From assembly GCA_963833095.1 (NCBI GenBank), contig CAWHWQ010000001.1:160001-224000 (forward strand): DNA of 64,000 bases. Direction: 5' to 3'. Shown piece after piece: positions 21,001 to 24,000 of this stretch. This DNA comes from Vulcanimicrobiota bacterium (lineage in GTDB: Bacteria > Vulcanimicrobiota > Vulcanimicrobiia > Vulcanimicrobiales > Vulcanimicrobiaceae). Position 1 is the stretch's first letter. Each line of letters starts with the position of its first letter. The position numbers were made by a program.

Positions 21001-24000
21001 ATTGCATGCAGCGCGAGGGTCGTCTTACCGCTTGATTCGGGACCGTAGATCTCGACGATACGGCCGCGCGGATATCCGCCGACGCCGAGCGCGAGATCGA
21101 GTGCGATCGATCCGCTGGGCACAACCTCGAACGCCATGCGTTCCTGGAAGTCGCCCATTTTCATGATCGATCCCTTACCAAATTGCCGCTCGATCTGGGC
21201 GAGGGCATTGCCCAGGGCGATTGCTCGTTCGTCTTGCGCTGCCATTCTCTCTCCTCTAGTAATCGTTGCTTTCATATACCATCACGTTGTCAGGCGCTGG
21301 TGACAAGTGTATGTCACACTTTCACGGAATCCGGGGCCTCATCGAAAAGGGCTTGGGTGAATTCGGCGGCGACAAATGGGCGCAGGGCATCGGGAGTCTC
21401 GCCCAGGCCGATGAATTTGATCGGAATCTCCAGCGTGTCGACAATGGCCACGAGCACGCCGCCCTTTGCCGTCGAATCGAGTTTGGTGACCACGACGCCC
21501 GTGAGCTGCGTCGTTTCATTAAAGAGCCGCGCCTGCGAAATCGCGTTCTGCCCGGTCGTGCCGTCGAGCACCAGTAACGTTTCATCGGGCGCGCGACCAA
21601 GTTCGCGCTCGATCACGCGGCGAACTTTTTTGAGTTCTTCCATCAAATTCGTTTTGGTTTGCAGCCGCCCGGCGGTGTCGACCAAGATCACATCGACGCC
21701 GCGCGCTTTTCCGGCTTTGATGCCGTCGAAGATCACCGAGGCGGGGTCGGCGCCTTCGGCACCACGCACGATCTCACTCTTGGAGCGATCGGCCCAAATC
21801 GCCAATTGTTCGGCGGCTGCGGCGCGGAATGTATCCCCGGCGACCAAGAGCACGCGTTTGCCTTCGGCGCGAAGTCGCGTTGCGAGCTTGCCGATCGTCG
21901 TCGTCTTGCCGCTCCCGTTCACGCCGACGACAAGAACCACCGACGGCGGATCGCTGCTCAGTTGTAACTCTGCGCCGGGAATCGTCAAAAACTTTTCGAC
22001 GTCGCGGTGGAATCGCGCAACCGCCTGATCGGTCGTAGCCCAGGCCTCTTGCTTGGCAACGGTCTTGAGGCCCTCGATGATCTTAGCCGTCGTCGGAACC
22101 CCGAAGTCGCCCATGATGAGCAGCTCCTCGAGGTCGTCCCAAAACTCCGGCGTGAGCGGCTTGCGGGCGAGGCCCAGGTTCTGTACCGCGGCGAAGGTGT
22201 CGCGGGCCTTGCCAAGGGACGCCTTGAGTCGTTGAAACCAGCTCACGGACCCTTTCCTTTCCTACCCAAGCATCGAACTCCTGTTCGCTAGTGCCAGCAT
22301 TTTTGTCACCCTGAGGTGCAAGCCCGCTAGGGCGAGCCTCGAAGGGTCGACCCCGGAGAGGTGGTCATTGCAGTTTACGCTTCGCCCTCAGCCTTCTGCG
22401 GTGTGGCCAACTAGCAACGACCTGAAACGCCGCCGACAATAAAGTCGGACAATGCCAGCAGTAAGATACGCACTACTTTCGTGCGTGACGACGGCAATCG
22501 ATCGTGATTTTTCTTTGGGACATTTCCCACCGATCAGCGTACCAGCCAAGCCGGCCGCCGACTACAGCATTCCCGTTATAACATAAGAGCGTTTCAGGTT
22601 GGTAAGCCGTCCCGTCGAACACGTCGTCGCTATACACCGATAAATCAGACGATGATGCTTGGAACGAGAGAATGATCAGAACGGGCCGCTATGAGACTCG
22701 TTGCCACACCGAGCACGCCCGACCACTTCTTAACGACCACTACGAAACTATCTCGAAACATTTGATCGCCTTCACTCCGCAACACCCTTCGAGGCTCGCG
22801 CTAACGCGCGCACCTCAGTGTGACAAGTTGCGGTGCTCCCTCGACTACGCTTCGCTACGCTCGGGATCACAAGGTTAGGCAACGGGGTCCAGGCCCGTGA
22901 TGCTGGAGGCCTCCATCTTTACCCACTGCGGGGCGGCGCCGTCGACCCGCACCGGATACTCGAAAGTGACGTTGGGCTGCCCGATTTGATCGCGCATGAT
23001 ATCGGCCAACCGTCCTTCGATGAACACGCGCCGGCCCGCCCCGAACGGTGCGTGTCCAGGCGCGAAGTGAATCTCGAAGACGGCTGCCGAGGCCGAAAAC
23101 GCGTGCACGCTCCCGCCGAAACAATCGTGCACCGCCATCTTGAGCGCAGCGACGATTTGCGAGAAGAGCGTGTCATCGACGCGCGCGTGGCGTTCGTCAA
23201 AGCAGCGTTCGCGATCGATCACGTAGCGCGTCGGCTCGACGCCGTCGATGAATTCGACCCTAAACTGACGACCTGAGATGTGCATCTCGAGGTTCCCGCC
23301 CATTTTGGTCAAGCGCACTTCGCGAATCCAGTCCTTGTGATCGCGCATCGTCTTGGAAAGCCAGTTCTTCTTCCACACGGTTAACCGGTGCGCTCCCGAA
23401 AGGCGGCATCGACCCGATAGACATACGCGAGCACTTCGGCCACCACGCTGTAGAGTTCACGCGGAATGCTGTCCGTCACGTTGAGGCGCGCCAGCGCTTC
23501 GACCAGCCCGGCATCTTCGTAGAGCGGGATACCGCGCTCTTTGGCGATGCGCACGATCGTTTCGGCCGTGATACCGCGTCCGACCGCAACGACCTCGGGC
23601 GGATCCGAGCCGAGCGGATCCCACTTCAGCGCAGCCGCCGCCGGCCGCTTGAACACCGATTTGCGAAAATCGAAAAAACGGCTCATGCGCGTGTATCCCA
23701 GAACGATTTTCGCTCCCCAGATGCCGGCGATTGCGCGGCTTCTGACGCGGATGCGACACTACCCGATGGCGACGCGACGCCGGCACCGATCGAGGAGATG
23801 CGGTAGCGCAGTCCTTCCAGGCGTGAACGCAGGTCGTTCAATGTCGTGCGGAAACGATCGGCGGCCAGGGTGGCCTGCGTCTTCACGTCCACGCTCACCG
23901 CGCGACCAACGGTCTGCACGTCGATCGCGACGGTTCCCAGCGACTTGGTATCGAGGATGAAGGCGATGTGAAAATTATCGGCATCCATCGCATTCTTACC

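Follow-up and report, generated by a model that had tools for sequence, protein, structure and literature searches.

Features of the recA Locus

The stretch of DNA analysed here (the window) comprises 64,000 nucleotides from a Vulcanimicrobiota bacterium of the family Vulcanimicrobiaceae (assembly GCA_963833095.1; contig CAWHWQ010000001.1, hereafter C1, positions 160,001 to 224,000), and coordinates without a contig prefix count along the window. At its recA locus an ftsY-type gene, recA and recX follow one another on the reverse strand, and the features that concern their transcription and translation are as follows:

22274..22287, no strand assigned: perfect LexA-type box CGAACAGGAGTTCG heading ftsY-recA-recX, marking a predicted distal LexA-repressed promoter
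21314..22246, reverse strand: ftsY-type SRP54 GTPase gene (Pfam PF00448), upstream of recA and on the same strand
21300..21317, reverse strand: putative palindromic operator GTGACA-TACACT-TGTCAC, predicted to occupy -40 to -23 of the proximal recA promoter
21284..21292, reverse strand: predicted extended -10 element TG-A-CAACGT (-11A, -7T), exactly 10 nt past the operator
21251..21257, reverse strand: recA ribosome-binding site AGAGGAG, assigned from its sequence
20196..21245, reverse strand: recA, 349 aa from the ATG at 21245
19714..20196, reverse strand: recX (Pfam PF21982 and PF02631), whose start overlaps the recA stop

The recA start site would lie near 21277, and the interval from ftsY to recA showed nothing resembling a terminator. 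The initial annotation had reported the palindrome RTGCCA-N6-TGGCAY at C1:181300-181317. A palindrome is indeed present there, but RTGCCA-N6-TGGCAY is the consensus of the family, from which the 18-bp copy of this genome departs by two symmetric mismatches with respect to TGCCA-N6-TGGCA; a search for the latter at up to one mismatch gave no match at 21300-21317 and two elsewhere in the window, with 1.5 expected by chance. The upstream half of the palindrome includes the stop codon TGA of ftsY, which accounts for one of the mismatches. Across the 2.8-Mb genome there are seven exact copies of the palindrome, and a scoring matrix trained on 47 recA sites of other genera recovered 13 sites scoring at least 16, compared with 0 and 1 in two shuffled genomes, while scoring this genome's own recA palindrome at only 15.0. 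A second palindrome in the same region, TTGTCA-N8-TGACAA (21288-21307), was rejected as accidental: it is composed of one half-site and the extended -10, is unique in the genome, and is not kept even within the genus.

Conservation and Geometry of the recA Promoter

Regions upstream of recA were compared in 70 genomes of the family, made up of the 30 best matches and 40 others chosen as one per further genus, out of 150 that matched. Counted as one genome per genus, the palindrome is exact in 35 of 53 genera, has one mismatch in 12, two in three and three in one, and is not present in the remaining two; at up to two mismatches it is thus found in 50 of 53, which widens the conservation first reported for 26 genera. 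The single site with three mismatches (genus g55) is a form with a 7-nt spacer and was read by eye. Control windows from coding regions contained the palindrome at up to one mismatch in none of 148 cases, and at two mismatches in six of 148.

The distance between palindrome and promoter was measured in 51 genomes, after leaving out g55 and genomes G002 and G047, which have no site at up to two mismatches, and adding one genome of the sister family. The sequence nAnnnT occurs exactly 10 nt after TGKCAY in all 51 (as TAnnnT in 33), and at each of the other offsets between 5 and 33 in only 0-7 of 51. The palindrome had been described as lying 14-15 nt before the -10 element; nAnnnT at 14 or 15 nt was found in 0 of 51, so that this distance needs to be corrected to 10 nt. 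A downstream TATATG, considered as the -10 of recA, was rejected because offsets 18-33 give only 0-5 of 51. Where a -35 element would be expected, at most two of six bases match TTGACA in 50 of 51 promoters. Judged from this spacing, the palindrome spans -40 to -23 of the predicted promoter and takes the place of a -35, its downstream half falling at -28 to -23. The downstream half is exact in 46 of the 51 sites and the upstream half in 39; the core triplet reads GGC in the majority, with GTC in some sites, that of recA in this genome among them, and a TG at -15/-14, as in an extended -10, accompanies 17 of the 51 promoters.

Other Putative Targets

Exact palindromes in this genome also stand at ssb, lexA, the TM0106 nuclease gene and an IS1595 transposase gene, and the earlier assignment of sites to ssb, to a RecB-like nuclease (TM0106) and to a mobile-element gene is borne out. 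Among 30 ssb loci of the family, 18 carry the palindrome at up to two mismatches (17 of 29 without unpublished genomes), and in nearly every one a -10 follows at 10 nt. For the TM0106 nuclease-helicase (TIGR03491), a site scoring at least 13 was present in 20 of 30 loci (18 of 27 without unpublished genomes), a score that 5 of this genome's 2120 upstream regions reach. The division-inhibitor gene minC (PF03775) has a site in 11 of 29 readable loci (10 of 27 without unpublished genomes) and in six of 16 more distant ones. It is a probable rather than a firm target, because the site lies far upstream, at 240-400 nt in the first set of loci, and in this genome falls within the 5' end of a divergent open reading frame. 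Of 41 pattern matches in five other genomes, 30 were retrieved, and these point to recA, ssb, the nuclease and minC, to genes for a UvrD helicase, a DEDD exonuclease, an Ada-type methyltransferase, Cas3 and TnpB, and to those for a phosphoesterase, a methyltransferase and many frames without an assigned family. A target set of repair genes (recA, ssb, the TM0106 nuclease-helicase) together with the division inhibitors YneA and MinC is of the type found in regulons of WYL activators.

The site at lexA has a different orientation from that originally supposed. The palindrome is found in 28 of 30 lexA loci (25 of 27 without unpublished genomes), exact in this genome, and was not found at lexA in four of four more distant genera. 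It lies at about +10 to +25 of lexA, in the start region of the gene, whose own promoter (TTGCCT-17-TAGGGT) is overlapped by a LexA box. An A at -11 with the 10-nt spacing is seen in 28 of 28 loci on the strand leading away from lexA, but in only seven of 28 toward it; the site at lexA therefore stands, whereas lexA as an activated target is not confirmed. The gene on the far side encodes a LysM protein that narrowly passed the YneA model NF010723 (60.3 bits against a cut-off of 60). Its predicted -10 overlaps that of lexA by two bases and has T at -7 in only seven of 28 loci; in four loci where the palindrome is shifted away from the lexA promoter, the -7T is present in all four. This pattern suggests a genuine promoter toward yneA that runs head-on against that of lexA and may also damp lexA.

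The LexA System and recA

LexA of this lineage is canonical (TIGR00498), and boxes of the CGAAC-N4-GTTCG type are found at lexA/yneA in 28 of 30 loci. Perfect boxes also precede imuA-imuB, a gene for an Rv2578c-like radical SAM protein and one for a ligase-associated exonuclease, matches that all fell below the NCBIfam cut-offs, imuA included. It had been proposed that recA has no LexA box and belongs to a LexA-independent regulon. For the proximal promoter this can be retained, as no LexA box was found in the proximal 100 nt upstream of recA. For the locus as a whole it cannot: a perfect CGAAC-N4-GTTCG box precedes ftsY at 22274-22287, as it does in most relatives, and a LexA with canonical boxes is predicted to control lexA/yneA, imuAB and probably recA. 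A LexA box within about 1.1 kb of recA was found in 26 of 30 loci (25 of 29 without unpublished genomes), 25 of them before ftsY and one before recA. In the remaining 40 recA loci, ten have a box less than 400 nt from recA; among further loci, 17 of 18 that were read farther upstream contain one, and 13 others were read to 400 nt. Because a perfect LexA box heads ftsY-recA in most relatives, recA is probably not free of LexA, which would reach it through the ftsY promoter by transcriptional read-through from ftsY into recA.

The WYL Protein and Its Distribution

A single PF13280 gene (C1:285141-286160) was found in this genome, which is 80.7% complete. Its product combines PF13280 with PF25583 in a wHTH (winged helix-turn-helix), WYL and WCX architecture, as in proteins of the DriD/SiwR/DdaA type (about 320-340 aa). 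A structure model (pLDDT 72.7, pTM 0.45) has an N-terminal domain of three helices plus a wing and gives full-length Foldseek matches to DriD at E 1e-15; among solved structures DriD ranks best by sequence and fold, followed by PafB/PafC, and the structure search placed BrxR and CapW lower than both DriD and PafB. The Pfam HTH models and an NCBIfam search gave no match for the protein, and a profile of the N-terminal HTH alone, run against solved structures, matched the Fur family and neither the PafB nor the DriD HTH. Two arginines of helix 3, R46 and R50, four residues apart, are conserved in 120 of 120 close homologs and fall, in the alignment, on the RTxYRD helix of YafY-type proteins. The positions that correspond to DriD Y168, R178, Y192 and R204 are likewise kept in 120 of 120. 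The predicted sensing pocket is atypical, because the position of DriD R207 is Ala in 120 of 120 close homologs and that of R210 is N or S. In the accessible part of the DriD study, an R207A substitution impairs activation (PMC9186387), and two matching arginines are required in PafB according to the portion available of PMC11804915.

The gene most often seen next to the WYL gene is hutH. A weak palindrome with a correct -10 precedes the WYL gene in nine of nine genomes of genus g1; general autoregulation was rejected, as most of the other 21 loci have no correctly spaced -10 at a comparable site.

Among family genomes at least 85% complete (eight or nine unpublished ones included), an ortholog at E <= 1e-40 was present in 227 of 235, and exactly one such match was found in 224 of these 227. 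The ortholog had been reported from none of 24 genomes outside the family; this no longer holds, since the sister family within the same order has it in three of three genomes (E about 1e-89), along with the recA site in three of three. In 18 genomes of the next order only distant WYL proteins were found (E 1e-9 to 1e-22), and a recA site with its -10 was seen in none of 11 readable recA loci. Genome-wide counts of the pattern run from 3 to 11 in 14 WYL-bearing genomes of the family and from 6 to 11 in the sister family; they are 1 and 1 in G002 and G047 and 0-3 in 12 next-order genomes, against 0-5 throughout for a reversed-pattern control that is not matched for word frequencies. Because of that mismatch, small excesses in families f4, f10, f12, f13 and f15 are not counted as regulons.

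Genomes G002 (91% complete) and G047 (96%), which are not sisters in a species tree built from RpsF and Ssb (RpsR and RplI being present in only four of 30 loci), have kept LexA and have no WYL gene. No site was found in either at recA, lexA/yneA, ssb or minC, nor at the nuclease gene of G047. Both are also without hutH, so the loss of the WYL gene is not visible as a clean deletion. In total, the ortholog is missing from eight of the 235 family genomes; one of these is unpublished and was set aside, and five of the seven usable genomes (G314, G334, G335, G349 and G033; 85-94% complete) keep the recA site. In four of these five (85-89% complete) hutH is missing too, and the G033 contig stops just short of the place expected for the WYL gene. 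Both site-less genomes are thus without the WYL gene, and an assembly that lacks the gene does not imply that the sites are lost.

Related sites occur elsewhere in the phylum. Genome G180, from another family, has 31 TGACA-type matches compared with one in the control, including one at a second recA, and in G177 and G157 such sites precede uvrA, dinB and a YafY-type WYL gene, with a correctly spaced site beside YafY-type WYL genes in G157. The WYL proteins of these three genomes are not orthologs of that of the Vulcanimicrobiaceae, and no relatives of the G180 protein were confirmed in the collection of named genomes searched.

Proposed Mechanism and Alternative Explanations

The palindrome is likely to be the operator of a WYL-type activator, and the WYL protein its binder. 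Both the layout of an activator site and the choice of this protein as regulator, as originally suggested, are supported by the promoter geometry, the half-site and the distribution of gene and sites. In the mechanism that we infer, a homodimeric wHTH/WYL/WCX activator of the DriD/SiwR/PafBC kind, encoded at C1:285141-286160, would sense damage, most likely as single-stranded DNA, and bind the palindrome. The dimer on TGCCA-N6-TGGCAY at -39 to -23 would then, without any -35, recruit the housekeeping RNA polymerase to nAnnnT 10 nt downstream, and so turn on recA-recX, ssb, the TM0106 nuclease-helicase gene with its divergent neighbour, and the yneA-type division inhibitor, probably also minC, plus lineage-specific repair or mobile genes. 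An intact LexA regulon would operate in parallel on lexA, yneA, imuAB, the Rv2578c-like radical SAM gene and the ligase-associated exonuclease, with recA probably under both regulators, as in mycobacteria.

It is unlikely that the activator site is bound by some other lineage-specific regulator, of the CRP/FNR or XRE family, with the WYL gene only co-distributed. Such a binder would suit the 5-6-5 symmetry, which resembles a CRP-type layout, the four HTH_Crp_2 matches above cut-off in this genome, and the five WYL-less assemblies that retain recA sites. Class II CRP sites centre at about -41.5, however, and a centre at -31.5 does not fit them, nor is there a -10 one helical turn further (offsets 18-33 give 0-5 of 51). 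CRP-family genes, counted irrespective of orthology, are also present in the site-less G002, G047 and G184, and both the half-site and the spacing match three studied WYL activators.

A different role for the WYL protein itself, mainly as a repressor in the manner of BrxR or CapW that blocks the -35 region until released by single-stranded DNA, appears distinctly improbable. A dimer bound at -40 to -23 could exclude polymerase, +10 to +25 of lexA is a position expected of a repressor, and the pocket is without the two arginines seen in DriD. At the same time, there is no -35 to block, and the invariant distance to the -10 (51 of 51) is not needed by a repressor. BrxR and CapW also rank under DriD and PafB in the structure search, and the genomes that have lost both WYL gene and site have not kept a constitutive promoter of the same layout. 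The operator of BrxR/CapW covers the working -35/-10 of an adjacent defence operon, whereas here a -35 is absent and the usual neighbour is hutH.

Conservation of the palindrome as an RNA hairpin or terminator, or for coding reasons, has very little probability. In this genome the ssb palindrome does lie within a 16-bp stem followed by a run of T, and there is overlap with the ftsY stop at recA and with the 5' end of the divergent frame at minC; but the long stem is absent from other ssb loci, and a stem of 5-6 bp can explain neither the fixed -11A/-7T 10 nt downstream nor the orientation at lexA/yneA. That the palindrome serves LexA as an additional or altered operator, as its presence at the classic SOS genes recA, ssb and lexA might suggest, is scarcely credible, given that the promoter of lexA itself carries canonical CGAAC-N4-GTTCG-type boxes in 28 of 30 loci and that LexA and its boxes persist in G002, G047 and five of five next-order genomes, none of which has the palindrome.

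Implications

A more far-reaching reading, which is offered tentatively and is rather doubtful as a whole, joins three elements: a WYL activator wired into the LexA switch, a changed inducer, and an ancestral promoter grammar of WYL activators in the form hexamer-N10-nAnnnT. If it is true, a single operator at +10 to +25 of lexA would drive a head-on yneA promoter whose -10 overlaps that of lexA, so that damage would halt lexA synthesis and at the same time fire recA, ssb and two blocks to division (YneA and MinC), and the downstream LexA boxes would make yneA dependent on both signals. The changed inducer would show in the two pocket arginines that are invariably lost, the TGACA-type sites that precede recA, uvrA and dinB in other parts of the phylum would reflect a shared ancestral grammar, and the -26 element of PafBC would represent one half of it.

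The analysis predicts the whole DNA-damage circuit of a widespread and barely cultured soil phylum, in terms of operator, spacing, start sites, regulator residues and the division of labour with LexA. It would add a fourth global response governed by a WYL activator to those of PafBC, DriD and DdaA, with GCC-N8-GGC as a new operator, and it suggests that dual control of recA by an activator and LexA had its origin, or was retained, beyond Actinobacteria and Caulobacter. Both the code by which helix 3 of WYL proteins recognises DNA and the part played by the missing pocket arginine become directly testable. A literature search, in which subscription journals were mostly uncovered, found nothing among the papers listed on a TGCCA/TGGCA motif, or on WYL proteins or LexA/DNA damage in the Eremiobacterota lineage. 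Systems of this kind have been described before; apparently new are the operator, the lineage, the head-on arrangement of lexA/yneA and the altered pocket.

Comparison with Known WYL Activators

Published systems are compared here through the accessible portions of the papers cited. The PafBC consensus is given as tGTCgg(N10)tA(N3)T, with PafB reading -28 to -23 through R46/R50 (PMC8635444). The promoters described here are alike in having a downstream half at -28 to -23, a 10-nt spacer, a tA(N3)T -10 and no -35, and their putative regulator in having two helix-3 arginines four residues apart, though its helix could not be aligned directly with that of PafB or DriD. PafBC is, in contrast, a heterodimer on a non-palindromic site, in which PafC contacts sigma region 4 (PMC8635444, PMC11804915, PMC5656591, in the parts available). 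With one WYL gene and two conserved half-sites, the Vulcanimicrobiaceae system has neither the two subunits nor the one-sided site of PafBC. Mycobacterial recA has two promoters, one repressed by LexA and one, RecA-NDp/P1, dependent on an activator (PMC5656591, available in part), an arrangement that is matched here by the predicted LexA promoter and activator promoter of recA.

SiwR of Mycobacterium smegmatis is described, in the text available, as a homodimeric WYL activator that needs the -26 region (PMC10693628). As predicted for the protein discussed here, it acts from a palindrome upstream of the -10, and by our own reading of its gel-shift oligonucleotides (TGTCCT-N10-CAGGGT) at the same spacing. 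As far as that text goes, it is a local regulator of adjacent dinB-like genes, whereas the Vulcanimicrobiaceae WYL gene is unlinked to its targets and predicted to act globally. The portion of the AntJ report that was available (PMC5133734) was uninformative for the comparison.

DdaA of Acinetobacter/Moraxellaceae is linked, in the accessible parts of PMC12392091 and PMC13010146, to CGWCA-N5-TGWCG sites before recA and ssb, about 50 bp from the start sites. It shares with the system proposed here a WYL activator that acts on recA, ssb and a gene that inhibits division, a similar palindrome, and the replacement of one WYL arginine by Ala. It differs, on the same partial reading of those sources, in the position of its site some 50 bp upstream of the starts and in having replaced LexA, whereas here the site is placed at -40 to -23 and LexA is kept.

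DriD of Caulobacter crescentus is a homodimer whose palindrome overlaps the -35 at a fixed distance to the -10 and which contacts the beta subunit and alpha-CTD, according to the accessible text of PMC13004042. The WYL protein had been called PafB-like; it is indeed encoded by one gene, but this single gene, the palindromic site and the structure match make it DriD-like instead. Both systems have a single-gene wHTH-WYL-WCX protein and a palindrome over the -35 position, and by our own reading of two DriD promoters printed there (TGTCGC-N10-CAATCT and TGGCGC-N10-CAAGGT) both follow hexamer-N10-nAnnnT. The DriD regulon and the one predicted here each include recA and a division inhibitor, and in each lineage LexA coexists (PMC9186387 and PMC13004042, in the parts available). 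The two proteins share only about 22% identity (DriD structures PDB 8tp8, 9pfq/9pfv/9pga) and belong to different phyla. The predicted targets here are YneA and probably MinC, whereas that of DriD is DidA, and the pocket has Ala at the R207 position and N/S at the R210 position of DriD. The site core here is GCC-N8-GGC, compared with GAC-N7-GTC for DriD, the half-sites standing one base wider apart than in DriD and SiwR.

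Architecture of the Site and Genes That Carry It

The spacing between the palindrome RTGCCA-N6-TGGCAY, a predicted operator of a WYL-domain activator, and the nAnnnT -10 element is kept even where the palindrome itself varies. In genus g55 (genomes G054 and G104; loci L027 and L030), the two halves of the recA site lie 7 nt apart, yet the distance of 10 nt from the site to the -10 element (CACAnT) is retained despite this longer spacer; the lexA/yneA and nuclease sites of the same genus have the 6-nt spacer. The site of the TM0106-type nuclease-helicase (contig C1:74278; L297, L374-L403) is often two-way, with a -10 element at 10 nt on either strand, and a start codon follows within a few bases, which suggests leaderless messages.

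Sites are also associated with mobile-element genes, among others. High-scoring examples with the correct -10 spacing occur at two IS1595-family transposase genes (contig positions C8:180274 and C4:270651; L298 and L299), and others precede two genes with HNH-like sequence, an IS605 TnpB gene in relative G193 and a Cas3 gene in relative G059. In another relative, G030 (L241), the ortholog of the WYL protein likely to bind the site is truncated and, at the contig end, has an inverted duplicate; this is probably an artefact of assembly.

LexA Boxes and Other Features of the Window

Features of the window are as follows.
22274-22287, LexA box whose spacer is always AGGA (also at L033, L064, L067, L078, and others); in most genera it stands before ftsY
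22300-22345 and 22780-22830, related repeat-like sequences bordering the next stretch
22380-22800, A+T-richer stretch upstream of ftsY, without an open reading frame of 80 aa
25932-28835, frames resembling a flagellar sigma factor, cheB, and cheR (labels from translations) that appear fragmented, perhaps through frameshift errors in the assembly

In 11 loci, a LexA box with the AGGA spacer lies immediately upstream of the recA promoter region. Perfect LexA-type boxes, CGAACGGGTGTTCG, are located at C2:146136 and C3:202847, each upstream of a gene; we take these genes to be mraZ and a ribonucleotide reductase gene.

TGACA-Type Sites in Other Genomes of the Phylum

In G180, of family f17 in the same phylum, TGACA-N6-TGTCA-N11-nAnnnT gave 31 matches against 1 for the control (L234, L232, L221). 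The genes concerned include a second recA copy, and presumably a radical SAM repair protein and a Cas8-like protein. This genome encodes a YafY-type WYL protein that has just 23% identity to the one at C1:285141-286160. With spacing unchanged, TGACA-type sites precede uvrA in G177 and also a gene of the DinB family there (L257, L258); in G157 such a site separates a YafY-type WYL gene from a DUF169 gene (L255). These placements in G177 and G157 suggest the TGACA-type site as a candidate general operator of YafY-type WYL regulators.
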